DNA from: an uncultured bacterium
Lineage (GTDB): Bacteria; Acidobacteriota; Thermoanaerobaculia; Multivoradales; JAHEKO01
Direction: 5' to 3'
DNA: 17,010 nt
Assembly (NCBI GenBank): GCA_938016625.1
Contig: CALILB010000379.1
Location: 1 to 17,010 of the forward strand
Part shown: positions 2,852 through 16,985 of the stretch, piece by piece
How positions within the stretch are numbered: position 1 is the first letter of the stretch
How the letters are laid out: every line of letters starts with the position of its first letter
The notes under the pieces: generated by a model
Database searches by the model: none
Told to the model about the DNA's origin: nothing
What the model saw: the letters and a program-made list of their open reading frames with translations, nothing else
Program-made: the position numbers and the translations under genes

Positions 2852-4144
2852 ATGGATCAAGCGCAGATGATAGGAATAGCACTCGGACTGGGAGGCGCAG
2901 CCCTGTTGCTCCTGCTGGCCTTCATCAAGACCCACATCGTCATCAGCCAGCCAAACGAGGTGGTCATTCTCTCGGGCCGCCAGCGCCGCCTACCGGACGG
3001 CCGCAAGGTCGGCTACAGAATCATCCGCGGTGGCCGCGGTTTCCGCTGGCCGTTCTTGGAGTCGGTCACACGCCTGCCGGTCACCACTCGGGCGATCGAT
3101 GTTCATCTATCGAAGGCCCTCAGCGCCGGCATGATCCCAATCACCGTCGAGGGGCGAGCCAACGTCAAGCTCGCCGGTAGCGAGGAGGAGGGGTTGGAGA
3201 GCGCTGTGGAGCGATTCCTGGGCAAGGGCGACGATGCCGTGGACAGAACCGCCCAGCAGGTCCTGGAGGGTGCGTTGCGCGGTGTCGTGGCGACGGTGAG
3301 TCCCGAAGAGGCCAATGCCCAGCGGCTCCAGCTCGCCCAGCAGGCCGCCGATCACGCTCGCGAGGATCTCAGCCGGCTCGGTATCGTGCTCGATTTCTTT
3401 CAGATCCAGAGCATCTCGGATGACCAGGGTTATCTCGAGTCCATCGGCCGCAAACGGAACGCGCAAGTCCAGCGAGACGCCAAAATCGCCGAGGCCAGGG
3501 CGGACGCCGAATCGCGCCAGGTGTCGGCGGAGCAGAAACTCGTCGGCCGCGAGGCCGAGATCGAGGCTGAAAAGGTCATCGTCAAACACGAGAACGAGCT
3601 CGCCGTGGAGAAGGCGGATCTCCAGGCCGAGACGAATCGCTCCCAGCAGAGAGCCGAGGTGGCGGGCAAGGTCGCACGTGTCGAGGAGGAGATCGACCTC
3701 GAGACCAAACGAGTCGAGCTGAGCACCAAACGCCACGAGGCCGACACCGTGATACCCGCGCGTGCCCACCGGGAAGCGCAAGAGCTCGAAGCGCAGGGCA
3801 AAGCGGCCAGAATCCTTGAAGACGGCAAGGCCACCGCCCAGGCCGTGGAGCTGATGCGCGAGCAATGGCAGGATGGCGACACCCATGACCTCTTTCTGAT
3901 CCAGATGCTGCCCGAGTTGCTCGACAAGGTCACCCGGGTGGTGGCCGACAACTTGCGGGTCGAAAAGCTCACCATCCTCGACGGAGGCAACGGCGAGGGC
4001 CTTCCCACTTATGTCAAGAACATCGCCAACAGCGCCGTGGTCATGCTCGAGCAGGTGAAAAACGCCACCGGTATCGATATGGAGAAACTGGCGAAGGGCG
4101 GGAGCCAGGAAAAGGACGCAAAGATCCCTAAGGACCTCGGTTGA
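2852..4144 (+). CDS. Flotillin-like SPFH/Band-7 membrane scaffold protein, with an N-terminal TM/hairpin and a long E/A/K/Q-rich coiled coil.
   Basis: N-terminal hydrophobic segment IGIALGLGGAALLLLLAFI. The SPFH core is VVILSGRQRR...IIRGGRGFRWPFLESV...IDVHLSKALSAGMIPITVEGRANVKL. An extended charged heptad-like region follows (AEARADAESRQVSAEQKLVGREAEIEAEKVIVKHENELAVEKADLQAE...), typical of FloT/YqiK-type flotillins. Confidence 0.85.
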   Translation: MDQAQMIGIALGLGGAALLLLLAFIKTHIVISQPNEVVILSGRQRRLPDGRKVGYRIIRGGRGFRWPFLESVTRLPVTTRAIDVHLSKALSAGMIPITVEGRANVKLAGSEEEGLESAVERFLGKGDDAVDRTAQQVLEGALRGVVATVSPEEANAQRLQLAQQAADHAREDLSRLGIVLDFFQIQSISDDQGYLESIGRKRNAQVQRDAKIAEARADAESRQVSAEQKLVGREAEIEAEKVIVKHENELAVEKADLQAETNRSQQRAEVAGKVARVEEEIDLETKRVELSTKRHEADTVIPARAHREAQELEAQGKAARILEDGKATAQAVELMREQWQDGDTHDLFLIQMLPELLDKVTRVVADNLRVEKLTILDGGNGEGLPTYVKNIANSAVVMLEQVKNATGIDMEKLAKGGSQEKDAKIPKDLG

Positions 4145-4310: not shown

Positions 4311-6206
4311 ATGACGATACGAGCAAAGATCCTGATCATCCTCTCCACGGTAGCCATCGTGTCGGCGGGAATAAGCTCGCTTCTCGGCTACCGAACCGCC
4401 CGCAAGGCTCTGGAGAGACAGTCCTTCGACAAGCTCACCGCGGTGCGGGAGATGAAGGCCAGCCAGGTGGAGGACTACTTCCAGCAGATCGTCGACCAGA
4501 TCGTGACCTTCTCCAGAGATCGGATGACAGTAGACGCCATGAGGGCGTTCAGTGCAGAGTTCTCGAACCTCGAGAGCCAGGTGGGATGGGACGAGCAGGC
4601 AACCGAAGAGGCAGAGCTCGAGCTTCGCTTGTACTACCAAGAGGAGTTCTTGCCTCGACTCGAGCAGAACCTCGAAAGTCCAGCCACCCTTTCCAGCTTT
4701 TGGCCGAATGACCGCGAGAGCCGGATACTCCAATATCAGTTCATCGCCGCCAATCCGTTCGACACCGGCTCTAAATCCAGTCTCGAGGAGCCCGCGGAAA
4801 AGAGCGCCTACAGTCGCGCTCATAAGCTGTATCATCCGATCTTTCGGGACTACCTCGAGAGATTCGGCTTCTACGACATCTTTCTGGTCGACCTAGAAAC
4901 CGGGCACATCGTCTACTCGGTATTCAAGGAGGTGGACTTCGGGACATCGTTGTTAAGCGGTCCTTACCGGGAGACGAATCTTGCTCGGGCGTTTCAGGCT
5001 GCCCGCCAGGCCGCCGCGCAGGATTTTGTGCTGTTGGTCGACTTCGAGCCCTATCACCCCTCCTACGGCGGTCAGGCTTCGTTCATTGCCTCGCCGATCT
5101 ACGACGGCCCCGAGAAGGTCGGAGTCCTGGTCTTCCAGATGCCCGTCGATCGGATCAACGACATCATGACCAGCAAGCACGAGTGGTCACGGGTGGGTCT
5201 GGGCGAGAGCGGAGAGACCTATATTGTCGGCTCGGACTACAAGATCCGAAATCAGTCGCGCTTTCTGATCGAGGACAAGGAAAACTACCTAAAGTTGATC
5301 GCGAGCATCGGTACTCCGGACTCGATCATAAAGGCCATCGCCAACCTCGATAGCTCCATCGGTCTTCAGGAGGTGCAGACCGAAGGCACTCGGGCTGCAC
5401 TAGGTGGGGAAACCGGTACGAAGATCTTTCCCGATTATCGTGGTGTCCCCGTACTCTCATCGTTCATGCCGCTCGACATTAGGGATGTCGATTGGGTGAT
5501 CATGAGCGAGATCGACGAGGCCGAAGCGTTCGAGCCTGCCAGGACACTGAGGAACCGGGTTTTGATCTGGCTGGCGGTTCTGATCGGCGCGAGTGTCGTC
5601 GCTGCCATGGTCTTCTCCAAGGGTCTGACCCGGCGACTCGAGGCGCTTTCTGAGACAGCAGCCCAACTTGCCGACGGCTTCCTCTATGTGGAGGTCGACA
5701 CCAGCGGCCGAGACGAGATAGCCGATCTCTCCAAGAGCTTCGAGACCATGCGGCAGTCTCTTGTCGAGCTGGTGGAGAAGCAGGAGGCCGAGATCGACGC
5801 TCTGTCGACACCGCTGATCCCGCTACTGGACGACGTCGTGGCCATGCCTCTCGTCGGCGAGCTCGATTCCAAGCGGATCGAGAAGGCCAGGCAGACTCTC
5901 GTCGAAGGTCTGCATGCCAGGGGGGCGAAGGCGGCGCTTCTCGATTTGACCGGTGTTCCTAGCCTCGACACCGGGAGCGCCGAAGCGCTTCTGGGAGCTG
6001 CCAAGGCGGCCCAGCTCTTGGGAGCGAAGGTCGTCATCACCGGTATGCGATCGGAGGTCGCTGCCAGCGTTGCAGATCTCGGCCTCCACCTCGACGGAGT
6101 CGCCACCGAGCGCTCGCTACAGAGCGGTATCTCTTTCATTATGAACGAGATAGGCGCTGCCAAGATGAAAAACCACTTGCAAGCTGGTGAGGAGGAAGAC
6201 GAATGA
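4311..6206 (+). CDS. Membrane-anchored RsbR-type stressosome protein. Domain order: TM1, periplasmic double-Cache (dCache_1-like) sensor, TM2, HAMP, coiled coil, C-terminal RsbR-type STAS domain.
   Basis: TM1 is ILIILSTVAIVSAGISSLLGY. The ~370-aa extracytoplasmic region ends in the Cache hallmark DYRGVPVLSSFMPLDIRDVDWVIMSEIDEAEAF. TM2 is VLIWLAVLIGASVVAAMVFS. The HAMP-like segment is KGLTRRLEALSETAAQLADG...DEIADLSKSFETMRQSL. The C-terminus aligns with B. subtilis RsbR STAS: LSTPLIPLLDDVVAMPLVGELDSKR...ALLDLTGVPSLDTGSAEALL...GAKVVITGMRSEVAASVADLG. The RBS GAGGTGA lies 6 nt before the ATG. Confidence 0.85.
   Translation: MTIRAKILIILSTVAIVSAGISSLLGYRTARKALERQSFDKLTAVREMKASQVEDYFQQIVDQIVTFSRDRMTVDAMRAFSAEFSNLESQVGWDEQATEEAELELRLYYQEEFLPRLEQNLESPATLSSFWPNDRESRILQYQFIAANPFDTGSKSSLEEPAEKSAYSRAHKLYHPIFRDYLERFGFYDIFLVDLETGHIVYSVFKEVDFGTSLLSGPYRETNLARAFQAARQAAAQDFVLLVDFEPYHPSYGGQASFIASPIYDGPEKVGVLVFQMPVDRINDIMTSKHEWSRVGLGESGETYIVGSDYKIRNQSRFLIEDKENYLKLIASIGTPDSIIKAIANLDSSIGLQEVQTEGTRAALGGETGTKIFPDYRGVPVLSSFMPLDIRDVDWVIMSEIDEAEAFEPARTLRNRVLIWLAVLIGASVVAAMVFSKGLTRRLEALSETAAQLADGFLYVEVDTSGRDEIADLSKSFETMRQSLVELVEKQEAEIDALSTPLIPLLDDVVAMPLVGELDSKRIEKARQTLVEGLHARGAKAALLDLTGVPSLDTGSAEALLGAAKAAQLLGAKVVITGMRSEVAASVADLGLHLDGVATERSLQSGISFIMNEIGAAKMKNHLQAGEEEDE
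6189..6198 (+). promoter_or_regulatory. Shine-Dalgarno GAGGAGGAAG, 7 nt upstream of the 6203 ATG. It lies inside the 3' end of the upstream gene, so the two genes are translationally coupled through an ATGA stop/start overlap.
   Basis: Read directly: tGAGGAGGAAGacgaATGA. Confidence 0.6.
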
Positions 6207-7111
6207 ACAGAACCTCAGGATCGGCCGGGGAGGGCGGAAACATGGCTGCTCTCCTCGAGCTCTACCGAATCTCCGAGGACGATCTGGACCGCGTAAGGGA
6301 ATTCGCCAAGATGGCCGGATCGGGATTGGAGGGTTTGATTGGCCAATGGTACGAGTGGCTCCAGAACTTGCCGGAGTACGACCACTTCTTTTCCGAGCCC
6401 GAGACTCTGGAACGCGTCAAACGTCTTCAGCAGGACTACTGGGCAACGTTTCTAGCGGCGCAAATGGACGATTCCTACCTCGAGACTCGGAGGCAGGTGG
6501 GGGAGACACACGCTCGGATCGGACTTTCGCTGAACACTTACTTTGCCGGGATGGACATGATGCTCGAGCTCTTCACTAGAGCCGTTCACAAGGCTGATTT
6601 GAAGGACGGGGCAAAGTTGAACATGCAGGAGTCGGTTACCAAGATGCTCCATCTCGACACCTCCATCGTTGTCGATACCTACAACCACATGGTCGAGGAG
6701 ACGCTGACGGCCCAGGCAAAGTCGCTGATGGAGATGTCCACTCCGGTGACCCAGATCTGGAGCGGGATTCTCTTGCTGCCGATCGTTGGGATCATCGACT
6801 CGAAGCGCGCCCGCGACATCATGAATGCCACGCTGGCCAAGATCGGAGAGACCCAGGCACGGATATTCATTCTGGACATCAGTGGCGTGGGAGTGGTGGA
6901 TACGGCGGTGGCCAATCACCTGATCAAGATCACTCGGGCTACCCGATTGATGGGTTGTGACTGCACTATCTCCGGGGTGTCACCATCGATTGCGCAGACC
7001 ATTGTCGATCTCGGTATAGACGTTGGCAGGATCAAGACCACATCGACGATGAAAGACGCTCTGGCCGACGCCTTCCAACGTGTCGGTATGGAGATCACCC
7101 AGGCGAGCTGA
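6203..7111 (+). CDS. rsbR: RsbR-type stressosome protein with an N-terminal globin-coupled-sensor-like domain (candidate heme-binding proximal His103 in VGETHARIGL) and a C-terminal STAS domain.
   Basis: The C-terminal half is a near-canonical RsbR STAS: MSTPVTQIWSGILLLPIVGIIDSKRARDIM...IFILDISGVGVVDTAVANHLIKITRATRLMGCDCTISGVSPSIAQTIVDLGIDVG. The N-terminal ~140 aa is a helical globin-like domain with an H-x-R-I-G-L...Y pattern reminiscent of globin-coupled sensors. The ATG overlaps the upstream stop (ATGA). An alternative start is ATG 6242. Confidence 0.85.
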   Translation: MNRTSGSAGEGGNMAALLELYRISEDDLDRVREFAKMAGSGLEGLIGQWYEWLQNLPEYDHFFSEPETLERVKRLQQDYWATFLAAQMDDSYLETRRQVGETHARIGLSLNTYFAGMDMMLELFTRAVHKADLKDGAKLNMQESVTKMLHLDTSIVVDTYNHMVEETLTAQAKSLMEMSTPVTQIWSGILLLPIVGIIDSKRARDIMNATLAKIGETQARIFILDISGVGVVDTAVANHLIKITRATRLMGCDCTISGVSPSIAQTIVDLGIDVGRIKTTSTMKDALADAFQRVGMEITQAS

Positions 7112-7115
7112 GAAG

Positions 7116-7556
7116 ATGGCCGGCGGCAGTGGCTCGAGGATCCCCCTTCAGGTGTCGCGGCAGTGCGTCGTGGCCTCGATCCAGCTCGATCTGACCGCGG
7201 AGGTACTCCGACAGTTCCGCGCCGACCTGCTCGGGCTGCTGCACGACTCCGGATGCAGCGGCGTCATACTCGACGTCTCGGGTGTCCAGATCATGGATTT
7301 TGAAGACTTCGAGGCGTTGCGACGGACCATGGCCATGGCGGCCCTCATGGGGGCCCAGACGATCGTCTCCGGTCTCAGGGCGGGTGTCGTCTCGTCGTTG
7401 GTCGAGCTGGGTGCCGACACCGAGGATATTGTCGCCACGCTCGATCTGGACGATGCCTTTCGCGTCATGGATGAGCTGCGCTCGGCGGCTCGCGATGAGC
7501 TCGAGGAGGAGGACAACCGTGAGCAGTCGGTCGGTCCGCTTGCAGATCCGGTCTGA
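7116..7556 (+). CDS. rsbS: RsbS-type single-domain STAS protein (stressosome core). The residue aligned to the phosphorylatable Ser59 appears to be Phe in an acidic DFEDFE context.
   Basis: The 146-aa protein aligns with B. subtilis RsbS: RIPLQVSRQCVVASIQLDLTAEVLRQFRADLL...GVILDVSGVQIMDFEDFEAL...MGAQTIVSGLRAGVVSSLVELG. The six-frame ORF begins at 7080 but overlaps the upstream gene, so ATG 7116 (MAGGSG...) is preferred. Confidence 0.8.
   Translation: MAGGSGSRIPLQVSRQCVVASIQLDLTAEVLRQFRADLLGLLHDSGCSGVILDVSGVQIMDFEDFEALRRTMAMAALMGAQTIVSGLRAGVVSSLVELGADTEDIVATLDLDDAFRVMDELRSAARDELEEEDNREQSVGPLADPV
7503..7513 (+). promoter_or_regulatory. Shine-Dalgarno GAGGAGGAGGA, 5 nt upstream of the GTG 7519 start of the RsbT-RsbX fusion gene. 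It is embedded in the 3' end of rsbS.
   Basis: Read directly: tcGAGGAGGAGGAcaaccGTGagc. The GTG is in frame with the RsbT-like sequence. Confidence 0.5.
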
Positions 7557-8619
7557 GCCGGACGCGATGCGGCCGGTGATGGAGGCCACTCGCAGAGCCC
7601 GCCAGATAGGCTTTGGACCTCAGGAGGCCCAGGCGATCTCCACAGCGGTGTCAGAGCTCGCGAGGAACATCTTGAAGTATGCGAGTACTGGAGAGGTGAT
7701 CATCGAGGAGACGCAAAGCGGGCGGCGTAAGGGCCTTCAAATCACTGCGCGCGACCGCGGTCCGGGCATCGCCGATGTCGAGTCCGCCATGCGGGATCAT
7801 TTCAGCTCGGGGGGAACCCTCGGTCTGGGTCTGCCGGGTGTCAAGCGGATGATGGATGAGTTCGAGATCGATTCCGCACCCGGCCGCGGCACCCGAGTCG
7901 TGATTCGCAAGTGGCTAGGGCCCCACGGTGATCTTGGAAGGTCCCGTCTCCGCGAGGCCTTGAAGAGATCGGGGGAGGGGCGGACCGGCGGCCAGATCAG
8001 CAGTGGCGCACTCACAAGCGGCGAGACCAAGGCTGCGGCCGGAGTCGACTGCGCGTTTTTCATTCGCCCCTGCCGAGGAGAGCGCGTCAGCGGTGACGCA
8101 GCCGTCATCGAGCAGCGCGAAGGCTTTATCTTCGCTGCCCTCATCGATGCCTTGGGTCATGGGCCTTCCGCCCACCGGATCGCCGTGCAGGGAGCGGCTT
8201 ACCTGAAAGAGTCGTGGACTTCAGATGTCCTTGCCACCCTCCATGGGCTCCACGATGCACTTCGCGGCACCGAGGGGGCCGCTGCAGGGCTCTGTGTGCT
8301 GGAGGTCGCTACGAGCACGGTGCGTTATGCGGGCGTCGGAAACACGGTTATCCGCAGCTTCGGCTCGCGAGAGGAGCGTCTCTACTCAGCGGCCGGCACC
8401 CTGGGCCATCAGATGCGCACCCCCAAGGAGCAACGTCTGGTGGTCACTCCCGGCGATGTCCTCATGCTCTACTCTGACGGCATCAAGGAACGGTTCGAGC
8501 TGGACGATTATCCACAGCTCAGGTATCAGAAATCACGCACCATCGCGAAGACCGTAGTGGAGCGATTCGGCAAGGACCACGACGACGCCGGCTGCGTGGT
8601 ATTGAGAATCGAATCATGA
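7519..8619 (+). CDS. Fusion protein. N-terminal RsbT-type GHKL serine kinase (stressosome switch kinase). A ~40-aa G/S-rich linker follows. C-terminal RsbX-like PP2C feedback phosphatase. The start could instead be ATG 7567.
   Basis: The N-domain is VRLQIRSEPDAMRPVMEATRRARQIGFGPQEAQAISTAVSELARNILKYAS...ITARDRGPGIADVESAMRDHFSSGGTLGLGLPGVKRMMDEF, matching B. subtilis RsbT including the G1/G2 ATP-lid boxes. The C-domain is CRGERVSGDAAVIEQREGFIFAALIDALGHGPSA...YAGVGNTVIRSF...VLMLYSDGI, matching B. subtilis RsbX motifs (CGDSFF..ELICAVADGLGSGSLA, YCSVGNVRFIL, IIHTDGL). The single uninterrupted frame 7282..8619 is in the six-frame track. Its 3' end overlaps the next ATG (ATGA). Confidence 0.8.
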   Translation: MSSRSVRLQIRSEPDAMRPVMEATRRARQIGFGPQEAQAISTAVSELARNILKYASTGEVIIEETQSGRRKGLQITARDRGPGIADVESAMRDHFSSGGTLGLGLPGVKRMMDEFEIDSAPGRGTRVVIRKWLGPHGDLGRSRLREALKRSGEGRTGGQISSGALTSGETKAAAGVDCAFFIRPCRGERVSGDAAVIEQREGFIFAALIDALGHGPSAHRIAVQGAAYLKESWTSDVLATLHGLHDALRGTEGAAAGLCVLEVATSTVRYAGVGNTVIRSFGSREERLYSAAGTLGHQMRTPKEQRLVVTPGDVLMLYSDGIKERFELDDYPQLRYQKSRTIAKTVVERFGKDHDDAGCVVLRIES

Positions 8620-10283
8620 TTCCCCTCGGAAGCATTGCTATCAGACAATCGGCGTCGATTCTCGAAGCCCGAAACAAGATCCGGACAGTGGCCGAGACGG
8701 TTCTGCATGATGCTGTGGGCGCCACTCGCGTAGCCACGGCGACTTCGGAGATAGCCCGGCTCCTGCTGCGCGAAGGAAACGATTCCCGCATTGATGTGGG
8801 CCTCGACATCCAAGCTCGAGCCCGTTGGCTGGTGATCGATTTCATCGGCCATCAATCGCTGTCCGGGGTGAACGAACTGGCGGGATTATTCGACGAGGTC
8901 GACGGACCCTATGATGTCAGCGGCGAGAACCTCGTCCGGGGCCTGGTGTCGCTTCCAGGTAGCGGCTTGCCCGACGAGGGATCGATCGCCACACTCCGGT
9001 CGGTGGTGGAAAAGAAGGGCCGGGACGAGCTGATCGCCGAAATCCAGATCAAGAACGTCGAGCTGCAGGATTCACTGGACAACTTGAGACGGGAGCGGTC
9101 GGCCAAGGAGCGGATGGAGAGCGAGCTCAACATCGGCCGCGAGATCCAGATGAGCATGCTGCCGCTCTCCTTCCCCGCCTTCCCAGACCGTACCGACTTC
9201 GACGTCCATGCTTCTCTCTATCCCGCGCGTGAGGTCGGCGGTGACTTCTACGATCTGTTTCTGATCGACAACCAGCATTTCTGCTTCTGTGTCGGCGACG
9301 TGTCGGGGAAGGGAGTGCCGGCGGCGCTCTTCATGGCGGTGACCAAGACCCTGATCAAGTCGCGAGCCGCGAACGACCTCTCGCCGGCGAGCATCTTGAG
9401 CCACGTCAACACTGAGTTGAGTCATCGCAACGAATCCTGCATGTTCGTGACCATATTCCTGGCCATCCTCGATCTCGAGATCGGTGAAATGGTCTACACC
9501 AATGCCGGACATAATCCACCTTACGTCAAGCGTGCCGATGGCAGTCTCCTGCGCCTCGATAGCCGGCATGGTCCGATCGTCGGTGCCGCAGAGGGTCTGG
9601 CCTATCGAGAGGACAGGGAAGGCCTCAGTCCCGGAGACCTCGTTTTTCTTTACACGGATGGGGTTACGGAGGCCATGAACGAGGAAAGTCAGCTCTATAC
9701 CGAAGACAGACTCAAAGGGCTTCTCTCGAATCACCCTTGCAGCTCGGTCGAGGAATCGGTCCGGGTCAGCGTGGATGACGTGTGGGATTTTCAGGGCGAG
9801 GCCGAACAGGCCGATGATATTACGGTAATGACCGTGTCCTACTCCGGGCCGAGTGAAGATGTGGAGTCGAACCGACTCGAGCTGAGAGCTGTTAATCGAC
9901 TCGAAGAGATCGCTCGTGTCAATGAGAGCTTCAACCAGTTCGCCCGGGAGCATGGGATACCGGATGCGATCAGACGGAAGATCAATCTCGTCTTCGATGA
10001 GCTGCTCAACAACATCATCTCCTACGCCTACGGGGACGATGACGAGCATCTCATGGAGATCGTCATCTCATTGGTGAACGGTCGCCTCGTCACCACGATT
10101 AGCGACGATGGTCGGGCTTTCAATCCCTTCGAAAGCGAAGCTCCGGATACCGGACTCTCGGTCGATGAACGTCCCATCGGAGGTCTGGGTGTACACCTCG
10201 TGCGAAGTGTGATGGACACGGTGAAATACGAGCGGCACGGCAGGAGAAACGTCGTGACCCTGGAAAAGATCGTCGAGCAGTAA
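8616..10283 (+). CDS. Fusion protein. An N-terminal ~150-aa domain of uncertain identity (possibly a degenerate RsbT-like domain lacking ATP-lid motifs). Then an RsbU-type PP2C (SpoIIE-family) phosphatase. Then a C-terminal RsbW/SpoIIAB-type GHKL anti-sigma-factor kinase.
   Basis: The PP2C core is MESELNIGREIQMSMLP...GGDFYDLF...FCFCVGDVSGKGVPAALFMAVTK...SCMFVTIFLAILD...YTNAGHNPP...LVFLYTDGVTEA...ADDITVMTVSY, matching B. subtilis RsbU motif by motif. The C-terminal 140 aa is LELRAVNRLEEIARVNESFNQFAREHGIP...INLVFDELLNNIISYAY...LVTTISDDGRAFNPFE...IGGLGVHLVRSVMDTVKYERHGRRNVVTLEK, matching RsbW. The ATG overlaps the upstream stop. Confidence 0.85.
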   Translation: MIPLGSIAIRQSASILEARNKIRTVAETVLHDAVGATRVATATSEIARLLLREGNDSRIDVGLDIQARARWLVIDFIGHQSLSGVNELAGLFDEVDGPYDVSGENLVRGLVSLPGSGLPDEGSIATLRSVVEKKGRDELIAEIQIKNVELQDSLDNLRRERSAKERMESELNIGREIQMSMLPLSFPAFPDRTDFDVHASLYPAREVGGDFYDLFLIDNQHFCFCVGDVSGKGVPAALFMAVTKTLIKSRAANDLSPASILSHVNTELSHRNESCMFVTIFLAILDLEIGEMVYTNAGHNPPYVKRADGSLLRLDSRHGPIVGAAEGLAYREDREGLSPGDLVFLYTDGVTEAMNEESQLYTEDRLKGLLSNHPCSSVEESVRVSVDDVWDFQGEAEQADDITVMTVSYSGPSEDVESNRLELRAVNRLEEIARVNESFNQFAREHGIPDAIRRKINLVFDELLNNIISYAYGDDDEHLMEIVISLVNGRLVTTISDDGRAFNPFESEAPDTGLSVDERPIGGLGVHLVRSVMDTVKYERHGRRNVVTLEKIVEQ

Positions 10284-10323
10284 AGCAAGAGGGATCAAAC
10301 ATGTATTCAAAAGAGGTGTGGCT

Positions 10324-10656
10324 ATGAAAATGGAAACCACTGCGGTGGACTCGGTTACGGTTGTACGCTGCGAGGGCAATCTCGACACCAACACCTCGGT
10401 CGAGGCCCAGGACACCTTGAACCAGCTCATGGATGATGGGGCCGCCAAGATATTGATCGATTTCGAAAAGGTCGATTTCGTCAGCAGTGCCGGACTCCGG
10501 ATACTGCTCGCTAGTGCAAAGCGCCTGAGCTCATCCGGAGGTGGTCTACGCATCACCGGCCTCAACGACGTCGTCAACGAGGTCTTCGAGATTTCGGGCT
10601 TCAGCACGATCCTCGACGTTTTCGCCTCGGAGGAAGAGGCGCTCCAGGGCTTCTGA
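10324..10656 (+). CDS. rsbV: RsbV/SpoIIAA-type anti-sigma-factor antagonist: a single STAS domain with a conserved phosphorylatable Ser in the DFVSSAGLRIL motif.
   Basis: The 110-aa protein MKMETTAVDSVTVVRCEGNLDTNTSVEAQDTLNQLMDDGAAKILIDFEKVDFVSSAGLRILLASAKRL...LRITGLNDVVNEVFEISGFSTILDVFASEEEA is the classic SpoIIAA fold signature. The RBS AAGAGG lies 7 nt upstream of ATG 10324. The six-frame track begins at in-frame GTG 10318. Confidence 0.85.
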   Translation: MKMETTAVDSVTVVRCEGNLDTNTSVEAQDTLNQLMDDGAAKILIDFEKVDFVSSAGLRILLASAKRLSSSGGGLRITGLNDVVNEVFEISGFSTILDVFASEEEALQGF

Positions 10657-10746
10657 GGGGTACCTGCCTCCTCGAAGACTCTCGACGACGCATCCAGTGT
10701 TCAGAAAGCTCTCCAGGTGCCGGTGTCCTGAGAAAGCACCACCACG

Positions 10747-12123
10747 ATGACGATCAGTGAGAGCTCGCGGCTCCGGACCGGATGGGATCTGCTGATCCTG
10801 GTGCTGGTTCTTCTAAGCTGTCTGCTGGTTCCTTTTCAGATCGCTTTCCGGCATCAGGTGAACCTCGCAGGGTCGGTTCTTCTCTATTTGATCGACCTCT
10901 TCTTTCTGCTGGACATCTTTCTCAACTTCCACACCACCTTCCGGCGCCAGGGTGCCGAGGTCACCGATCCCGGTGAGATAGCCCGGCACTACCTCGGAAC
11001 CCTCTTTCTCGTCGATCTGCTGGCGGCGTTACCGTTCGATGCCCTCCTGCTCCCGTGGAGAGGCGTCGAGATCGGCGGAGTCTCGGTCGTCCTGCTGGCG
11101 AGGCTGCTGCGCCTGCTCCGCGTCGTCCGCCTGTTTGCCATCCTCAGACGGTGGCAGCGACAGAATTGGACCAACGCAGGTTTCTTGCGCATCGCCAAGC
11201 TAGCGGCAGTCATTCTCCTCCTGACCCACTGGATCGCCTGTGCCTGGTTTCTGATTCCTTACATGGAAGGTTTTCCCGAGGACTCGTGGGTCGTGACCGA
11301 GGGAATCGATGAGGCGGAACCGGTGTCGCAGTATGTCCGCTCTCTCTACTGGGCCATCGTCACCATGACGAGTGTGGGTTACGGGGACATCACACCGGTC
11401 CGCAATACCGAGTATCTCTTCACCATGCTGGCCATCGCGGTGGGCGCCTCGATCTACGCCTTTGTCATCGGCAACATCGCATCGCTGCTCAGCAATCTCG
11501 ATCGCGCCAAAGCGAGCTTCTGGAACCGGGCGGAGACGGCCAATCAGTACCTCCGCAGCCGGCGCGCCCCGTCCAGACTGAGCGAGCACATTCGGGACTA
11601 CTACGAGTACGTGTGGGAGAGGTACCGGGGGATGAGCGAGCAGGAGCTCTTTGGCGATCTTCCGGGTCCGGTGAGGCTCGAGATTCTCCTCCACCTGACT
11701 CGAGATCTGCTGGAGCAGGTGCCACTGTTCCGCCACTGCACCCCGGCACTCCGCAACGCGTTGCTCATGGCGTTGAGGCCACAGGTCTTCGGACCGGACG
11801 GATACATAGTCAGGGAGGGGGAGGTCGGGAACGAGATCGTCTTCATCAGCCGGGGTACGGTGGAGATCCTTACTGAAGAAAGAAAGAAGTCCCACGGCAA
11901 CCTGGGCAGTGGCGAGTACTTCGGCGATCTGTCGATGCTGCTGGGGGAGCGGCGAACGGCGTCGGTGCGGGCAGTGACATACTGTGACGTGTTCGTTCTG
12001 GCGCGAGAGGACTTCGACAGGATCAAGAGCGAGTACGAGGAGTTCAAGGAGATTCTGAAGACCATCTCCTCGGAAAAGTCGGAGCGCCTGTCTGCGCTTG
12101 TTCTGGACGGCGTGGTCCTCTAG
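10747..12123 (+). CDS. Cyclic-nucleotide-binding-domain-containing voltage-sensor K+ channel (6TM; S4 with regularly spaced Arg; TSVGYGD selectivity filter; C-terminal CNBD with intact phosphate-binding cassette).
   Basis: S1-S3 are hydrophobic segments. S4 is VVLLARLLRLLRVVRLFAILRR. The pore helix plus filter is YWAIVTMTSVGYGDITPV (nt 11368-11388 encode TSVGYGD). The CNBD is VPLFRHC..LRNALLMALRPQVFGPDGYIVREGEVGNEIVFISRGTVEI...GSGEYFGDLSMLLGERRTASVRAVT, with Glu and Arg-Thr of the phosphate-binding cassette present. Confidence 0.9.
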   Translation: MTISESSRLRTGWDLLILVLVLLSCLLVPFQIAFRHQVNLAGSVLLYLIDLFFLLDIFLNFHTTFRRQGAEVTDPGEIARHYLGTLFLVDLLAALPFDALLLPWRGVEIGGVSVVLLARLLRLLRVVRLFAILRRWQRQNWTNAGFLRIAKLAAVILLLTHWIACAWFLIPYMEGFPEDSWVVTEGIDEAEPVSQYVRSLYWAIVTMTSVGYGDITPVRNTEYLFTMLAIAVGASIYAFVIGNIASLLSNLDRAKASFWNRAETANQYLRSRRAPSRLSEHIRDYYEYVWERYRGMSEQELFGDLPGPVRLEILLHLTRDLLEQVPLFRHCTPALRNALLMALRPQVFGPDGYIVREGEVGNEIVFISRGTVEILTEERKKSHGNLGSGEYFGDLSMLLGERRTASVRAVTYCDVFVLAREDFDRIKSEYEEFKEILKTISSEKSERLSALVLDGVVL

Positions 12124-12137: not shown

Positions 12138-14738
12138 ATGAGCACGATCATCATCGGCGACGGTCTGACCCGCGAGGTTCTGAGCCCCGAGCTTCCCTAC
12201 CGGGAATCGAGGCAAAACATCGGACAGGCGGAAGTCACGCGGCTGCTGGGCAGAGGCAGGAGCTTCGGCGAGGGTCCGCTGCCTCTATTCCTGCGGCGGG
12301 CGGTAGAGGACGGAGATGATGGTGGAGGTGGGGGAGTCATCTTCTTGGCCACCCTCCCCGACTCCGAAGTCGACGGAAAACCTTCCGGGGAGTCACCCGG
12401 CCCCGAGGTTTTCGTCGATCCGCTACAGGATCTGGCTAGGCAGGTGAGAGTTGTTTCCACCTCGACGGATTCCCTTCCCTGGCAGGAGCTCATGACCACG
12501 ATCGAGGCGCTTGGTGGCTCCGAGGAGGCTCGCCTGAGCTCGGAACAGGGTGAGCTCCGATTCCTGGTGGTCGGTTGTCACACCGAGCAACGAATCATGG
12601 CGATTGCTTCATTTCTCAAGAATGTCCTCGGGTACGAGCGCGTCGGTGTGGCTTCTCATCTAGTGGGTAGCGCCACACCAGCCGGTCATTTCGCGGCGCT
12701 GAGGCATAATCTGCCCGGCGCCGGCGTCGAAGTCATCCTCGACCTGGAAGAGGCCGCAACTTTCGCAGGGCTCGACCCTGCGCCGTTCGGACCCCTCGGC
12801 TACCGCCCCTGTGCTCTGGAGCTGCCCGACGAAGAGACATCGCTCGCCGCGGAACAGAGGCGCATCGTCGAGCTTCTCTGTCTGCACTGGACGAGGGCCC
12901 GCCTGCGACCGCTGGCCGGGGGCTTCAGCGGCAGCCTGCTGCTGTTGGCGGATGGATGGAAAGGCGAGGCCCGGACCGAGCCCCTGGTCCTCAAGATCGA
13001 TGCCTTCTCGCAGATGCGGCGTGAGTTGGATGGGTACCACCTGGTCAAGGACTTCTTTGGCAAGCATGTGCCCACTTTCTCCTATCCAGTGGCGGATGGC
13101 GACCTCATCGGCGTCGGGATGGAGCTGGCGGCCATGGAGGGGCGGCCGCGGACACTCCAGGATGCTTTCGAGGAGGCCGAGGACGAGGAGAGCCTGGGTC
13201 GTTTTATGCGCCAGCTGGACAAATCCCTGGTTCTCCTTTCCGAGAAGCTCTATAGCAACACCCGGGAGGAATCCGGGGTCGTGCCTTACCGTGTGTTCGG
13301 TCTCCATGCCAAAAAGCAACAGAAATGGCTGCGGCAGAACGGCGAGCTGACCCTCTCCTACCTCGAGACCGAGCTGCAAAACGAAGCGAAGCCCAACCCT
13401 CAGCAACTGGCAAAACTTCTCGGGGTAGTCGCCTCGAACGAGGACAGCGTCGACAGCGAAGTCTGCCTCAGCCATGGCGACCTGAACTTTGCCAACGTCA
13501 TCTGCGACCAGGCCGACAACATCTGGTTTATCGATTGGACACACAGCGGCTACGCCCCGGTCGAGCTCGATTTCGCCAAGCTGGAGTCGGATGCCAAGTT
13601 CGTGATGAGCAAGGAATTCGAACCCGAGGACCTACAACGGCTCAAGAAGCTTGAGGAGTATCTAGCCTCACACCGTCTACCCGCCGACGCCAATTCGCTC
13701 CCTGAAAGCCTGAAGTTCGCCAAGTGGGACCTGCGATTTCGCAAGATTCTCGGGGCCGTCAGACGAATCCGCGAGACCTGCTTTTCCCTCAAGGAGACCG
13801 ACGACTGGCTGGTCTACCGGATCGCCCTCTTGCGCTACGCCCTGCACACGCTCAGCTTCGACAAACGCCGAGACCGAGGCGAGTGCGAGCCAACACAGCT
13901 CATGCAGGCTCTCTATTCGGTGGAATGCCTGATCTTCGATCTCGTGGCCGACGACTTTCATCTGAAGACCCGGGGAGAGCGGCCACCCGTCTATCCGCCT
14001 CGGCTCAGAGTTTCCATCGACGAGGCGCCGTGGATGTTGGACAGCCCCGGCTACGATCCTCCCTTCTACGTCGATCCCTCGGTCACCCAGAACGAGCGGG
14101 ACGGCGGCGCGGGCGGCTGGGCCGATCCGGGGGACTTCGAGCAGGTCAAGGAAGAGCCGAGGATCCAGGCGGCCAAGTTCAAAGACGACAGCGGCAAACC
14201 GCTCAACCCCCGGGGCCGAACCGGAATCGCGGGTCGTGGACTGCTCGGGCTGTGGGGCCCCAACCTTTCGGTGGCCGTCAACCTGGTGCGCACCAACGAG
14301 GCGACCGGGGAGTTGGAGATTCTCCTGGGGAACAAGGAGGGGGGGCAGGATCTGGAGCTTCCCAAGGGGTTTGTCCTGCCGGGCGAGGAGCCCGACGAGG
14401 CGGTGGCTCGGGTGCTCGAGAGCGAGACCGGGTGGCGACCCTCGGGCCTCGATTCGGAAGTGGTTTTCGAGGGCTACACCTACGATCCCCGGGAGACCGA
14501 CAATGCCTGGGTCGAGAGCCGGGTATCCTTGATCGTGGCCGGCAGTGACCTGCGGCGCAGCACCTTTCGACCGGGTGGCGAGTTCGACGAGGTCAAGTGG
14601 TGGCCGCTCGAGGCCGAGACCATTAACCGGGTCCCCTCCGGCCAGGCCCGCTTCGTCAGAGAGTCTCTCACCCGGCTGATGGAGGCGGGCCACCTGGACA
14701 AAGCCACGGCCGAGAATCTGCTGACCGCTACAGGGTGA
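12138..14738 (+). CDS. Large multidomain protein. The ~210-aa N-terminal domain is of uncertain fold (weak resemblance to the isochorismatase / cysteine-hydrolase Rossmann core, but with Arg where the catalytic Cys would be). The central domain is an APH / choline-kinase-fold small-molecule phosphotransferase. The C-terminal domain is a NUDT9-like Nudix hydrolase (ADP-ribose pyrophosphatase-like).
   Basis: The kinase has a G-rich loop RPLAGGFSGSLLLL and a VLKI beta3 Lys, then the catalytic loop CLSHGDLNFANVICD and the IDWTHSG metal-binding motif (nt ~13474-13520). The Nudix domain reads GRTGIAGRGLLGLWGPNLSVAVNLVR and has the Nudix box GFVLPGEEPDEAVARVLESETGW (nt ~14367-14435). The N-domain has FLVVGCHTEQRIMAIASFLKNVLGYERVGVASHLVGS. 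The start is 14 bp after the channel stop, with no terminator evident. Confidence 0.8.
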   Translation: MSTIIIGDGLTREVLSPELPYRESRQNIGQAEVTRLLGRGRSFGEGPLPLFLRRAVEDGDDGGGGGVIFLATLPDSEVDGKPSGESPGPEVFVDPLQDLARQVRVVSTSTDSLPWQELMTTIEALGGSEEARLSSEQGELRFLVVGCHTEQRIMAIASFLKNVLGYERVGVASHLVGSATPAGHFAALRHNLPGAGVEVILDLEEAATFAGLDPAPFGPLGYRPCALELPDEETSLAAEQRRIVELLCLHWTRARLRPLAGGFSGSLLLLADGWKGEARTEPLVLKIDAFSQMRRELDGYHLVKDFFGKHVPTFSYPVADGDLIGVGMELAAMEGRPRTLQDAFEEAEDEESLGRFMRQLDKSLVLLSEKLYSNTREESGVVPYRVFGLHAKKQQKWLRQNGELTLSYLETELQNEAKPNPQQLAKLLGVVASNEDSVDSEVCLSHGDLNFANVICDQADNIWFIDWTHSGYAPVELDFAKLESDAKFVMSKEFEPEDLQRLKKLEEYLASHRLPADANSLPESLKFAKWDLRFRKILGAVRRIRETCFSLKETDDWLVYRIALLRYALHTLSFDKRRDRGECEPTQLMQALYSVECLIFDLVADDFHLKTRGERPPVYPPRLRVSIDEAPWMLDSPGYDPPFYVDPSVTQNERDGGAGGWADPGDFEQVKEEPRIQAAKFKDDSGKPLNPRGRTGIAGRGLLGLWGPNLSVAVNLVRTNEATGELEILLGNKEGGQDLELPKGFVLPGEEPDEAVARVLESETGWRPSGLDSEVVFEGYTYDPRETDNAWVESRVSLIVAGSDLRRSTFRPGGEFDEVKWWPLEAETINRVPSGQARFVRESLTRLMEAGHLDKATAENLLTATG

Positions 14739-14744
14739 TTGTCG

Positions 14745-15665
14745 ATGTCGCTGACCCCCACCGAGAGAGCATGTCTCGAAGCCTTTCGACAAGGTGCCGA
14801 TCCGGTGCGGACTAGGGATCCGGGCAGGATGGAAGAGTGGCTCGGATTCGGTCTCCGTCTGCTGCTGGAGGCGGGCGCGAAGATCCGAGAGGGTCGCGCC
14901 AAGATCGACGAGGGCGAGGTCGAGCTCAAGAGTGATGGGTCCCCCGTCACTAGTATCGAGGAGGAGATCGAGCGGCTATTGGTAGAACGCCTCACGGTCT
15001 TTACCGAGAACATTGCGATGGTGGGTGAGGAGACCGGTGGAGCTCTGCCGGAGTCGGGATTTGCGGTGGCGATCGATCCGATCGACGGCACCTGGGCCTT
15101 TGTCAACGGCACCGAGACCTACACCACCACCCTCGCCTTCTTCCATGACCGTGAGCCCTTTCTGGGCATGGTCTCCAACCCCGCTACAGGCGAGATCGGG
15201 TATGCCCTCAACGAGGAGGCCTCGCGCCTTCTTCAGCTCTCCCTCTATGGCGAAGCAGATGCCGCCTGTTCTTTGCCACGGGCGGGAGCGGAGGCCGCGC
15301 CACCCTGCCTACTTGTCAATGTCCATCCGAGCAGCCAAGGTGGAGCCCTGGCCGCGGCACTCCACGAGGCATGGTCGCGGGGTGAGGTCGACATGGTGCG
15401 CTCACCCGGCGGCTCGCCGGCCTGGGCGCTGCTCGAAGCCGCCAAGGGCGACTTCGTCTATGTCAATCAGTGGACGAAGAGGCCGGCGGACGTCTACGAC
15501 CTGGCTGCCGGTGTCCTGCTCGTGCGGCGGGCCGGCGGTGAGGTCACGGATCTGGAAGGGCAGCCGATCGACATGCTTCGCCACCAGGGTCCCTTTGTCG
15601 CCTCGATCGACCAGCCTTCCAGAAAAAAGGTAATCGAGCTGGTCGGCCGGGTGGTGAGCAGCTAG
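14745..15665 (+). CDS. Inositol monophosphatase / CysQ (3'(2'),5'-bisphosphate nucleotidase) family phosphatase.
   Basis: Family motifs are present: MVGEETGG (metal-binding E-E), AIDPIDGTWAFVNGT (the DPIDGT signature) and, later, WAL..LEAAKGDFVYV (WD-x-x-AG-like). ATG 14745 is preferred because an RBS-like GGGTGA lies 6 nt upstream, inside the stop of the previous gene. The six-frame track starts at TTG 14739. Confidence 0.8.
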   Translation: MSLTPTERACLEAFRQGADPVRTRDPGRMEEWLGFGLRLLLEAGAKIREGRAKIDEGEVELKSDGSPVTSIEEEIERLLVERLTVFTENIAMVGEETGGALPESGFAVAIDPIDGTWAFVNGTETYTTTLAFFHDREPFLGMVSNPATGEIGYALNEEASRLLQLSLYGEADAACSLPRAGAEAAPPCLLVNVHPSSQGGALAAALHEAWSRGEVDMVRSPGGSPAWALLEAAKGDFVYVNQWTKRPADVYDLAAGVLLVRRAGGEVTDLEGQPIDMLRHQGPFVASIDQPSRKKVIELVGRVVSS

Positions 15666-15725
15666 CCGGCTACCGCCTCTCGTCGTACTTAGAAGTCAGT
15701 TCGAAGGAATAGATCGCAGGGTCGA

Positions 15726-16985
15726 TTAGCTGTTGCGGCGCAACAGCATGACAGTGATGTCGTCCTCCTGGGGAGCCGATCCGCTGTGGTCGTCGACGCT
15801 GCGGAGAATCTCCTGAATCACCTCGGCGCACGACAGGTGACCGGTCTTCTGGAGGATCTTCATCACGGGCTCTTTCTCGAGCTCCTCGTCCTCGGCGTTC
15901 CGCGCCTCGAAGACTCCATCGGTGATCAGAGCCAGGGTGTCCCCGGGCTCGAGATCGACAGCCGTTGGTGCGAGAACCTCCTGCATTGGAAACATGCCCA
16001 GTGGAACACAGGTCGGGTCGAGTAACTGGAACTCATCAACGGCTGCCCGGTAGAGGATGAGTGGTCCCTGACCTGCCGCATGGTACCGAAGCTGGTGCCC
16101 TTCGGAATCGAGGTGTCCGATGAAGGCTGTGACGAATCGGCCAGCGGGCAGATCCTCCGTGAGCTGGTCGTTGATGTTCTTCAGCAACTGCTCGAGATCG
16201 ATTCCCAGTCGGACGGCCAGCCGGAGCATCGAGCGGACCTGGGTAACGCTGAGGGCGGGTCCGATTCCGTGTCCCGTGGCATCCGCCAGAAGCATCATCA
16301 GATTGCCTGTCGGCGAAGCGATCAGGTCGAACGAGTCGCCGCTCGTTTGCTCCGCTGGGCGGTTCAACCCAGCCACGTCGTAGCCCGGTATCTGTGGCAT
16401 CTCTTCGGGAAGGGTGCGCTGTTGGATGTCCCTGGCGACGCCGAGCTCACTTTCCAGATGAGCCTTGGCCAGACTGTCCTCGTGATATTGCGCGTTGCTG
16501 ATGGACAACGATGCGAAGTGCGTAAGCTCTTTCAGTAGGAGTCGATCGCTGTCATCGATTGCCGCATTCTCGTTGAGGTAGATCTGCAGCACACCGATGG
16601 TCGCCTTCGACTCGTCACAGAGCGACAGCGAGACGATAGTCCGCGAGCCGTCCTGACTGATCTCTTCGGTCATCTCGCAGTGCTTCGATGCTTCCTCAGC
16701 AAGATTTGAGCAGTGCTGCCGCTCAGTGTCGGCCATCTCGCTCGGCCAACGCGAGTGCTCGAGCTCGAGCGTTTCGTCTTCGTCGTTGCACAGGTAGATG
16801 CTGCCGCCGATCGCACCCAATTCGCCGGTCGCGATATCGAGAAACGCGTTGAGCACCCGGTCGAGGGTCAGCGACGAGTGAATGCTCTTCGCCGCAGCGA
16901 TAATCATGGACAGTCGCCAGAGCTTGGTCTCGGCGGTGAGACTCGTCGTTTCGTCCACTACGTCTTTGAGGGATTTTTCCGTCAC
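15726..16985 (-). CDS. GAF-domain plus PP2C (SpoIIE/RsbU/RsbP-type) serine phosphatase. It is convergent with the upstream operon.
   Basis: The N-terminal GAF-like region is LSMIIAAAKSIHSSLTLDRVLNAFLDIATGELGAIGGSIYLCNDEDETLELEHS.... The PP2C core is LESELGVARDIQQRTLP...SGDSFDLI...LMMLLADATGHGIGPALSVTQVRSML...RFVTAFIGHLD...YHAAGQGP...LALITDGVFEA...EDDITVMLLRR. The GTG start has GGAGGG 6 nt upstream on the minus strand. Confidence 0.85.
   Translation of the reverse strand: MTEKSLKDVVDETTSLTAETKLWRLSMIIAAAKSIHSSLTLDRVLNAFLDIATGELGAIGGSIYLCNDEDETLELEHSRWPSEMADTERQHCSNLAEEASKHCEMTEEISQDGSRTIVSLSLCDESKATIGVLQIYLNENAAIDDSDRLLLKELTHFASLSISNAQYHEDSLAKAHLESELGVARDIQQRTLPEEMPQIPGYDVAGLNRPAEQTSGDSFDLIASPTGNLMMLLADATGHGIGPALSVTQVRSMLRLAVRLGIDLEQLLKNINDQLTEDLPAGRFVTAFIGHLDSEGHQLRYHAAGQGPLILYRAAVDEFQLLDPTCVPLGMFPMQEVLAPTAVDLEPGDTLALITDGVFEARNAEDEELEKEPVMKILQKTGHLSCAEVIQEILRSVDDHSGSAPQEDDITVMLLRRNS

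Follow-up and report, generated by a model that had tools for sequence, protein, structure and literature searches.

A Vibrio-type stressosome locus without a sigma factor gene, probably wired to a fused PP2C-kinase/STAS switch, in an uncultured Acidobacteriota bacterium

To our knowledge, a good understanding of stressosomes is limited to Bacillus and Listeria. The Bacillus subtilis operon has the order RsbR-S-T-U-V-W-sigmaB-X, and phosphorylation of RsbS at Ser59 releases RsbT. For the haem-RsbR stressosomes of Vibrio, O2-dependent control of a kinase has been shown (PMC4976288, PMC9237108). In the survey by Heinz et al. 2022 (PMC9237108), RsbRSTX modules without sigB are reported from several phyla, followed by eleven types of downstream signalling gene, including PP2C. 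Here, the whole 17,010-bp contig CALILB010000379.1 from an uncultured Acidobacteriota bacterium (hereafter the window; G+C 56–65%) was analysed. It contains six mostly overlapping genes at 4311–10656, all on the + strand, which encode the proteins R1, R2, S, T-X, U-W and V. On balance, these genes probably form one operon, in which a Vibrio-type stressosome would be wired to a phosphatase/kinase protein setting the phosphorylation of V, because the motifs of T, X, PP2C and W are intact, the phospho-sites of R1, R2 and V are kept, and the genes are tightly spaced. The domain content and the gene order agreed with those given in an initial annotation of this DNA. Its description of the locus as a compressed B. 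subtilis sigB operon was not borne out, and a Vibrio-type RsbRSTX module was found instead.

The locus shared several features with the Vibrio-type modules, namely a haem-globin RsbR, an RsbS without the Bacillus phospho-serine, and X located right after T. As in V. vulnificus and V. brasiliensis, no sigma factor gene was found in the locus, and a downstream signalling gene was present; a D1-type kinase of Vibrio also carries psiW, the N-terminal domain of U-W that is described below. In contrast to the Vibrio type, T and X form one polypeptide here, an additional membrane RsbR with Cache, HAMP and STAS domains is encoded, and a PP2C-kinase with a STAS protein takes the place of the hybrid histidine kinase and response regulator as output. 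Judged from the protein sequences, the locus is a member of the RsbRSTX family surveyed by Heinz et al. 2022, because R2 is homologous over its full length to the V. vulnificus RsbR (VvRsbR), T shares 44% identity with RsbT and X 38% with RsbX of Vibrio aquimaris, where these are separate proteins, and X follows T. Compared with B. subtilis, all catalytic and STAS families were present, together with the R phospho-sites, the phospho-serine of V, the T kinase and the X phosphatase. The sigB gene, the RsbU_N four-helix bundle and RsbS Ser59 were missing. Furthermore, X follows T and not sigB, T is fused to X and U to W, and the sensors are of the haem-globin and Cache-HAMP types. The MtR/MtS/MtT/MtX/MtG system of Moorella thermoacetica (Quin et al. 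2012) has the same RSTX order and a non-sigma output. There, the signal reaches the output MtG, a GGDEF protein, by way of RsbU_N (PMC12143880), whereas the presumed receiver in the window is psiW, with a PP2C-kinase/STAS output.

The six genes were confirmed at or near the positions first given for them, after correction of the starts of S, T-X and V. The S gene starts at ATG 7116, as refined from the sequence. The T-X gene starts at GTG 7519 behind an GGAGGAGG Shine-Dalgarno sequence, and the resulting length of 366 aa was also given by the Logan and ENA gene calls; in one related locus (L087) the JGI call gave a T-X of 350 aa, starting 48 nt further downstream. The V gene starts at ATG 10324, 41 nt beyond the stop codon of U-W. 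At the R1/R2 and T-X/U-W junctions, the stop codon of the first gene (TGA in T-X) and the start codon of the second (ATG in U-W) share bases in the form of ATGA; S and T-X overlap by 38 nt. Translational coupling across these genes is likely because of the ATGA and 38-nt overlaps. The genes of the window lie nearly end to end, with intergenic gaps of 60–166 bp. A promoter scan returned 0 promoters, and terminator-like sites occurred at the frequency expected from shuffled sequence, which was uninformative. The STAS, HATPase_c and SpoIIE assignments were upheld by Pfam with E-values far beyond chance, and those of RsbT, RsbX and RsbW were supported by domain searches and conserved motifs.

R1 (4311–6206, + strand, 631 aa) is a membrane RsbR paralogue with the order transmembrane segment, probable dCache, transmembrane segment, HAMP and STAS. 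Two hydrophobic segments were seen in its translation, and Pfam matched STAS (1.5e-11) and HAMP (1.4e-9); residues 480–604 also matched the NCBIfam YtvA-family STAS model. The Cache domain claimed at first was supported in part: dCache_1 matched with E 1.9e-7, but the score of 31 bits was below the Pfam cut-off of 45 bits. In the R1 orthologue of a syntenic 128-kb contig (L002), the dCache_1 match was listed by Pfam without the mark 'weak'. R2 (6203–7111, + strand, 302 aa) is a haem-globin-coupled RsbR with Protoglobin (1.8e-27) and STAS (3.7e-13) domains. Residues 16–298 aligned with a chain of the V. vulnificus RsbR cryo-EM structure (7o0i_B) with E 6.5e-99, and the histidine of GExHARxGL and the tyrosine of W/F-Y-x-W-L were kept in this alignment. 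By analogy, we infer that these are the proximal and distal haem residues, because of the VvRsbR alignment and a statement by Jia et al. 2016. Both proteins have the features of RsbR, that is, a STAS domain with two conserved Ser/Thr sites. These sites lie in GELDSKR and SLDTGS in R1, and in IIDSKRA and VVDTAVA in R2, the latter two being kept in the alignment with 7o0i_B. In loci that carry the labels Acidobacteriota, Gemmatimonadota, Ignavibacteria, Chloroflexota and Desulfobacterales, too, an R1 orthologue lies ahead of the globin RsbR.

S (7116–7556, + strand, 146 aa) is an RsbS-like single-STAS protein (Pfam 1.4e-5), encoded between R2 and T-X as expected of the RsbS scaffold. It matched the B. 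subtilis RsbS (6jhk, E 5.3e-16) and the V. vulnificus RsbS (7o0i_a, E 4.7e-15). The canonical phospho-serine was not present in S: Ser59 of the B. subtilis RsbS aligned to Phe, with two acidic residues behind it. In the V. vulnificus RsbS, this position is taken by Gly. In an alignment of 74 family members and two reference RsbS proteins (76 rows), S or T occupied the Ser59 column in 13 rows, including the B. subtilis RsbS itself, and the usual motif of the S family at this site was MD[LAFV][ED][DE]F. Ser59 is a mark of the Bacillus mechanism and not of the presence of the complex. The Bacillus step in which phosphorylated RsbS releases RsbT is not applicable as such, because S lacks the canonical site; judged from the sequence, the release of T, if any, must be controlled differently from Bacillus. 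In addition, S has an acidic C-terminal tail of about 30 residues, which is absent from the RsbS chains of 115–123 aa in the PDB.

T-X (7519–8619, + strand, 366 aa) joins an RsbT-type GHKL Ser/Thr kinase (residues 1–134, nt 7519–7920) to an RsbX-type PP2C phosphatase (residues 176–366, nt 8044–8616) through a variable linker of about 40 residues. Pfam matched HATPase_c_2 (9.9e-15) and SpoIIE (1e-9). The T domain matched SpoIIAB, and the X domain matched Moorella MtX (3zt9), its most similar solved structure, over the whole length with E 1.3e-16. In an alignment of 13 divergent members (46–61% identical to the window protein), the T motifs were invariant (N-box E46 and N50; G1 box D79, G81 and G83; G2 box G99–G107), and so were the metal-site residues of X (D193, D210/G213-H214-G215, D320-G321 and D355-D356). 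A search with T-X found 880 proteins at E <= 1e-5. Among the 120 matches listed, 119 had both domains, and nearly all were 325–386 aa in length. The fusion of T to X, as first proposed, was thus upheld in one open reading frame with intact motifs. A frameshift or an assembly artefact as the origin of the fusions was ruled out by hundreds of homologues of the same length, which also indicated that both the T-X and the U-W fusions are genuine.

A scan of one genome per species yielded 178 stretches with relatives, of which 80 were kept as loci and examined. T and X formed a single uninterrupted reading frame in 22 of the 73 evaluable loci and separate adjacent genes in the other 51, and X was located directly after T throughout the lineage, fused or split. 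From these sequences the T-X fusion is taken as a derived and recurrent state, because it occurs as a single frame in 22/73 loci and as split adjacent genes in 51. In the split loci, T ends just past the motif RKW, and X begins a few codons on. The 22 fused loci comprised 16 with a U-W and V output, five that were truncated or masked, and one with a hybrid kinase (Undibacterium, L059). T and X were split in all 15 evaluable PP2C-only loci, in the cyclase locus, and in the histidine-kinase loci with L059 as the sole exception. Genes resembling T or X (31–35% identity) were also observed on many plasmids of cultured bacteria, with hosts such as Deinococcus radiodurans (megaplasmid), Streptomyces, Paraburkholderia, Sphingomonas and Phaeobacter (54 records), and some were annotated as 'ATP-binding SpoIIE family protein phosphatase'. 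Such hosts could serve as tractable models.

U-W (8616–10283, + strand) consists of psiW, a helical linker, a SpoIIE-family PP2C domain and an RsbW-type kinase domain. The PP2C domain (9270–9839, + strand, residues 219–408) gave a Pfam E-value of 4.9e-49, and G208-G209-D210, D228/G231-K232-G233, D348-G349 and D400-D401 were invariant in 36 orthologues. The GHKL kinase domain (9894–10268, + strand, residues 427–551; HATPase_c_2, 1.4e-24) had intact ATP-binding motifs: N466, D497-D498 and G522-G523-L524-G525 were invariant, and G499 nearly so. It matched RsbW (6m36) with E 6.5e-6. The model of the whole protein was closest to the RsbU-RsbW crystal structure of Mycobacterium tuberculosis Rv1364c (3ke6, Foldseek E 1.1e-20). 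The best NCBIfam and PDB matches were at the family level only, namely RssB, SiaA and Rv1364c, and Pfam found no Response_reg receiver domain in U-W. More than 120 full-length relatives (52–100% identity) confirmed that U is fused to W, and the fused architecture is not rare. V (10324–10656, + strand, 110 aa) is a single-STAS protein of the RsbV/SpoIIAA type (Pfam STAS 2.6e-19; TIGR00377 anti-sigma-factor antagonist 2.2e-24). The motif [FY][VI]SSAGLR was invariant in 23 orthologues, with a conserved phosphorylatable serine that we take to be the equivalent of B. subtilis RsbV Ser56; the B. subtilis sequence served only to mark the serine. U-W and V thus present a fused PP2C-kinase with an adjacent single-STAS gene.

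The N-terminal domain of U-W (8616–9020, + strand, residues 1–135), here termed psiW, is an RsbW-like pseudokinase as judged from its sequence, because it has no N-box Asn and no G1/G2 motif. Pfam gave no match for residues 1–180 even at E <= 10. The AlphaFold2 model of psiW (predicted local distance difference test, pLDDT, 85.5) had the order beta-alpha-alpha-beta-beta-alpha-beta-beta, a helix at 121–132 and a 45-residue helix at 136–180, and its alpha/beta GHKL fold was closest to RsbW and SpoIIAB. In the model of the full-length protein, the same order of secondary structure was found in psiW (2–112) and in the true W domain (420–552). Between the third strand and the helix after it, W has about 30 residues and psiW only 6, and on this model we place the ATP lid in the W stretch. 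In an hhalign comparison, psiW was remotely homologous to the T domain (E 1.6e-4), with R48-L49 of psiW opposite R49-N50 of T. The glycine motif of the G1/G2 boxes was not seen in the psiW family alignments, and the psiW hidden Markov model matched T domains weakly in 18 loci. An RsbU_N identity for this terminus was ruled out by the GHKL fold closest to RsbW/SpoIIAB and the lack of a Pfam match; the protein labelled 'RsbU' at first lacks the N-terminal four-helix bundle by which RsbU binds RsbT, and has psiW at this end. Between psiW and PP2C, the linker (9021–9155, + strand, residues 136–180; motif SRxELxxE.Q.KN.EL) was a single helix in both models, with a low monomer pLDDT of 56–65, and it was conserved in all output classes. 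Residues 141–354 of U-W aligned to residues 125–342 of Pseudomonas aeruginosa RssB, a stretch that starts upstream of PP2C. In a previous study, a coiled-coil linker was described to activate the PPM dimer, a mechanism that rests partly on RssB (PMC12143880).

psiW was not confined to PP2C-kinase proteins. By tblastn, the gene after T/X matched only the first 150–170 residues of U-W in nearly every locus, whatever domain followed, and psiW was matched in 86 of the 90 sequences composed of the window and the loci scanned. Pfam analysis of representatives indicated four kinds of partner after T/X: in about 20 loci psiW was joined to a PP2C-kinase, with V as the next gene; in 15 loci (14 with a cyanobacterial label) to PP2C alone; in 27 loci to a HisKA-HATPase_c histidine kinase, some of them with receiver (REC) and Hpt domains; and in 1 locus to an adenylate/guanylate cyclase. 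A psiW profile search of 1.84 billion representatives returned 531 proteins, and of the 150 listed nearly all were matched from their first residue on. The 85 longest representatives included 69 histidine kinases (31 with REC and 12 with Hpt), 10 PP2C proteins (7 also with a W-type kinase), 2 cyclases, 1 GGDEF and 1 HD_5 protein. In the D1-type hybrid kinase after the RSTX genes of V. aquimaris, psiW was located at about residues 2–118 (E 9e-13), ahead of HisKA at 156. A tblastn search of plasmids with psiW gave no match, and neither did a word-indexed search with a short psiW fragment alone, probably because too few indexed words were shared. Intramolecular pairing of psiW with W was rejected as a general mechanism, since PP2C-only and cyclase proteins carry psiW as well and have no second GHKL domain.

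The U-W/V pair resembled switches that have been described before. In HsbR/HsbA of P. aeruginosa and CrsR/CrsA of Shewanella oneidensis, one PP2C-kinase protein controls a STAS partner (PMC6482189). As in U-W, PP2C precedes an RsbW-type kinase in one protein, and a single-STAS protein is encoded next to it. The input of HsbR/CrsR is a receiver fed by a phosphorelay, whereas here the putative input is psiW after a stressosome, and the likeness drawn is one of architecture. Rv1364c of M. tuberculosis (PAS-RsbU-RsbW-RsbV) differs in its PAS input and in the fusion of the STAS domain as well, and it has neither a stressosome context nor an N-terminal pseudokinase. An orphan RsbW domain fused to PP2C, part of the gene content for which the initial annotation knew no description, is established in HsbR/HsbA, CrsR/CrsA (PMC6482189) and Rv1364c. 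Sigma-less stressosomes, globin RsbR proteins, X after T, PP2C-type outputs and PP2C-kinase/STAS switches are not new either. In the text of PMC9237108, the RsbU_N domain is reported missing from most proteins downstream of RsbRSTX, and a pseudokinase is not described there. No description of a T-X fusion or of psiW was found in the searchable literature; two key sources lay outside that search, and a prior description is possible. The T-X fusion and its link to a PP2C-kinase output, the membrane Cache-HAMP RsbR paralogue and, above all, psiW are apparently undescribed. The earlier view that this gene content was undescribed therefore stands for the T-X fusion, within the searchable literature, and falls for the U-W fusion, and the sigma-less fused cascade as a whole is largely anticipated.

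A working scheme for the operon can be proposed on these grounds. R2 would bind haem and report O2, as shown for the Vibrio RsbR, and R1 would report an extracytoplasmic ligand through its Cache-HAMP region. R1, R2 and S would assemble through their STAS domains into a large pseudo-icosahedral core able to bind T, as their homology to the corresponding chains in 7o0i suggests. The conserved Ser/Thr sites of R1 and R2 would be phosphorylated by T and cleared of phosphate by X, which is fused to it. psiW would then serve as the docking domain that receives the state of the stressosome; it may pair with T, of which it is a degenerate paralogue, or it may bind STAS domains of the core in their unphosphorylated state, much as RsbW does with RsbV. 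From there, the signal would travel along the helical linker to PP2C, as shown for RsbU and RssB, and would shift the kinase/phosphatase balance on the serine of V, as in HsbR/HsbA and CrsR/CrsA. Finally, V or the W domain would engage a target encoded elsewhere, which may be a sigma factor, an anti-sigma factor or a non-transcriptional partner.

An adaptor role for psiW is suggested by its near-constant position after T/X (86/90), its several kinds of output and its remote homology to T. Extended further, psiW might be the general adaptor from Vibrio-type stressosomes to all outputs, with partner-switching on the stressosome surface, a suggestion that we make tentatively. If it is true, the psiW of the effector, and not a released RsbT, binds or leaves the core of unphosphorylatable RsbS and R STAS domains, and the phosphorylation state of the R proteins, set by the resident T-X, governs this binding or leaving. 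It would explain the loss of the RsbS phospho-serine and the fact that T can be fused to X, as well as the lack of an RsbT-D1 interaction and of an RsbU_N domain in V. vulnificus. Several points weigh against the proposed operon scheme. The dCache_1 match in R1 was below the cut-off, S has Phe in place of the phospho-serine on which the release of T depends in Bacillus, and the arrangement of the domains in the U-W model was poorly defined (predicted template modelling score 0.52). Moreover, an interaction between VvRsbT and VvD1 was not detected by Heinz et al. (PMC9237108). The scheme leaves unexplained how a T tethered to X could leave the complex, the correlation of the T-X fusion with the PP2C-kinase output has no explanation, and no gene was invariably adjacent after V and no target of V or W was found.

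The genes that follow the cassette were as described in the initial annotation. A cyclic-nucleotide-monophosphate (cNMP)-binding ion channel (Pfam; 10747–12123, + strand) begins 91 bp past V and is possibly associated with the cassette by position; it is followed by an APH/TCAD9/NUDIX protein of 866 aa (Pfam; 12138–14738), an inositol-monophosphatase-family (IMPase) protein (Pfam; 14739–15665) and a GAF-PP2C protein on the minus strand (15726–16985). Upstream are a partial ammonium transporter gene (amt, 7–1017), PII (1036–1368), a glutamine synthetase gene (glnA, 1381–2817) and an SPFH/Band_7 protein (2852–4144). The APH/TCAD9 protein has a kinase-like region and a C-terminal NUDT9-like NUDIX hydrolase, and the inositol-monophosphatase/CysQ-like gene comes next. 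In L002, the channel and APH-NUDIX genes flank the GAF-PP2C gene (14573–15832), which is on the same strand there. Much like RsbP as compared with RsbU, the GAF-PP2C protein could be an alternative, stressosome-independent input onto V.

The 80 loci examined carried more than ten phylum-level labels, and the labels of the metagenome-assembled genomes included Myxococcota, Gemmatimonadota, Acidobacteriota, Halieaceae/Halioglobus, Cyanobacteria, Betaproteobacteria, Planctomycetota, Chloroflexota, Nitrospina, Ignavibacteria, Desulfobacterales and Spirochaetales. The fused architecture was seen in such genomes under the labels Halieaceae/Halioglobus, Gemmatimonadota, Planctomycetota and Ignavibacteria, as well as in many metagenome contigs. 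Nearly all loci of sufficient length had a cluster of S, T/X and an R-type STAS gene; in most of them the globin-R, S and T/X genes were in this order on one strand, and the psiW-bearing gene clustered with them. The neighbourhood comparison called for at first thus showed that the fused architecture recurs across phyla, but nothing was invariably adjacent to V. In Halieaceae-type loci (L001, L013, L015–L018, L024, L029, L095 and L097), a Na/Pi-cotransporter-family gene of 529–531 aa begins 0–6 nt after V (about 70 nt in L095), and in several of them a 264-aa acyl-CoA thioesterase gene is next. In L095 and L097, a PAS-STAS (RsbR-like) gene is convergent to the transporter gene. In L002, L030, L031 and L096 (labelled Planctomycetota), the gene after V is that of the cNMP channel, and the Halioglobus loci had neither the channel nor the Na/Pi gene by V. 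In loci with Gemmatimonadota, Ignavibacteria and Planctomycetota labels (L002, L010, L012, L025, L026, L030–L032, L056 and L096), the channel/APH-TCAD9-NUDIX/IMPase block and the amt-PII-glnA-Band_7 block stay beside the cassette with shuffled order and orientation; in L012, for instance, the channel block lies upstream in inverted orientation, and the amt block comes after V. Such persistence points to a functional link or to transfer of the genes as a block. The amt, PII and glnA proteins of the window were 87–96% identical to those of the Gemmatimonadota loci L010 and L012, whereas R, S, T-X, U-W and V of these loci were only 51–70% identical to the window. L002 was 51–77% identical across all shared genes. 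The discordance in identity between the amt block and the cassette hints at cassette exchange.

Some loci had additional features. In L096, gene calling split the APH and NUDIX halves into two genes, and another V-like STAS gene was located between the channel and these halves. In L025 (an Ignavibacteria genome), a V-like gene was upstream of R1 (3718–4047), T and X were split, and extra STAS and RsbW-like kinase regions were present at 10745–11654, after U-W and before the APH-NUDIX gene. A search of plasmids with T-X also brought up an RSTX stressosome locus on a 1.3-Mb replicon of Vibrio aquimaris THAF100 that is filed as plasmid pTHAF100_a (NZ_CP045351.1, 958990–975957; L094), a stretch for which PLSDB lists no gene features. 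It encodes R (525 aa), S (129 aa), T (133 aa) and X (196 aa), followed by the hybrid kinase, as separate genes, and the 525-aa RsbR matched R2 in the STAS part only, with a different sensor domain.

The absence of a sigma factor gene from the 17 kb, as reported in the initial annotation, was upheld: genes fill the window, and phmmer searches with E. coli RpoS, FliA and RpoE against the six-frame segments of at least 90 aa gave no match, although very divergent ECF sigma factors could escape such a search. The window is a whole short contig, so on its own it would leave room for an ordinary sigB-type operon with a sigma gene just outside, co-transcribed with V, the case in which the earlier reading was to fall. 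A sigma gene was looked for in a 22.6-kb JGI contig with identical genes, which extends the window on both sides from COX2 upstream to DUF420 downstream, and none was found; after V come the channel, APH/NUDIX, IMPase, GAF-PP2C, DUF420 and other genes. In addition, no sigma family was listed in the Pfam tables of the 128-kb L002 contig or of the L001, L095 and L097 flanks, and no six-frame segment near V matched the E. coli sigma factors. This alternative is regarded as extremely improbable. Chance adjacency of two independent modules, the R/S/T-X stressosome and the U-W/V partner switch, is also very unlikely. Physical contact between the modules has no direct support, and pairs like U-W/V are widespread without stressosomes (PMC6482189), but the T-X and U-W reading frames overlap, a psiW-bearing gene follows T/X whatever the output domain, and psiW was seen only beside stressosome cassettes, at the N-terminus of nearly all proteins listed.

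A more serious possibility, though still one we hold to be the less probable, is that the W domain is a true anti-sigma factor holding a sigma factor encoded elsewhere, which dephosphorylated V would release. In that case the locus would act as a switch of the general stress response after the pattern of CrsR/CrsA-RpoS, differing from it in the input alone. The kinase core of W is intact and of the RsbW type, V is a typical anti-sigma-factor antagonist, and CrsR and HsbR bind RpoS, a separate protein that is not part of the pair, through the kinase/anti-sigma domain (PMC6482189). JGI names the relatives sigma-B regulation proteins, a name derived from homology only. On the other hand, no sigma gene was found within about 10 kb in any locus with U-W and V (Pfam-labelled contexts and phmmer), and the three sigma matches among all sequences scanned were unrelated and far from the cassette. 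Many RsbW/RsbV-like pairs also act on targets other than sigma factors, as HsbA does in binding FlgM and HsbD (PMC6482189). The same observation speaks for a non-transcriptional output, since known STAS proteins act on non-sigma targets: V might bind or regulate a membrane transport or nucleotide-signalling protein encoded nearby, with the cNMP channel and the APH/TCAD9-NUDIX/IMPase block as candidates here and the Na/Pi-cotransporter-family protein in Halieaceae-type loci. Two distinct kinds of gene context have a membrane channel or transporter gene directly behind V, and the channel, APH/NUDIX and IMPase genes stay by the cassette through rearrangements under three phylum labels. This proposal is doubtful, however, as it relies on adjacency, the two types of neighbour are mutually unrelated, the Halioglobus loci have neither, and no precedent for a free RsbV-like protein gating a channel was found in the literature considered.

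For a stressosome wired to U-W and V as proposed, the finding bears on how the signal leaves Gram-negative RsbRSTX complexes. psiW and the helical linker are a concrete candidate for this exit, and the question becomes directly testable. Furthermore, the recurrent T-X fusion, which tracks the PP2C-kinase output, and the loss of the RsbS phospho-serine suggest a release logic that differs from the textbook one.

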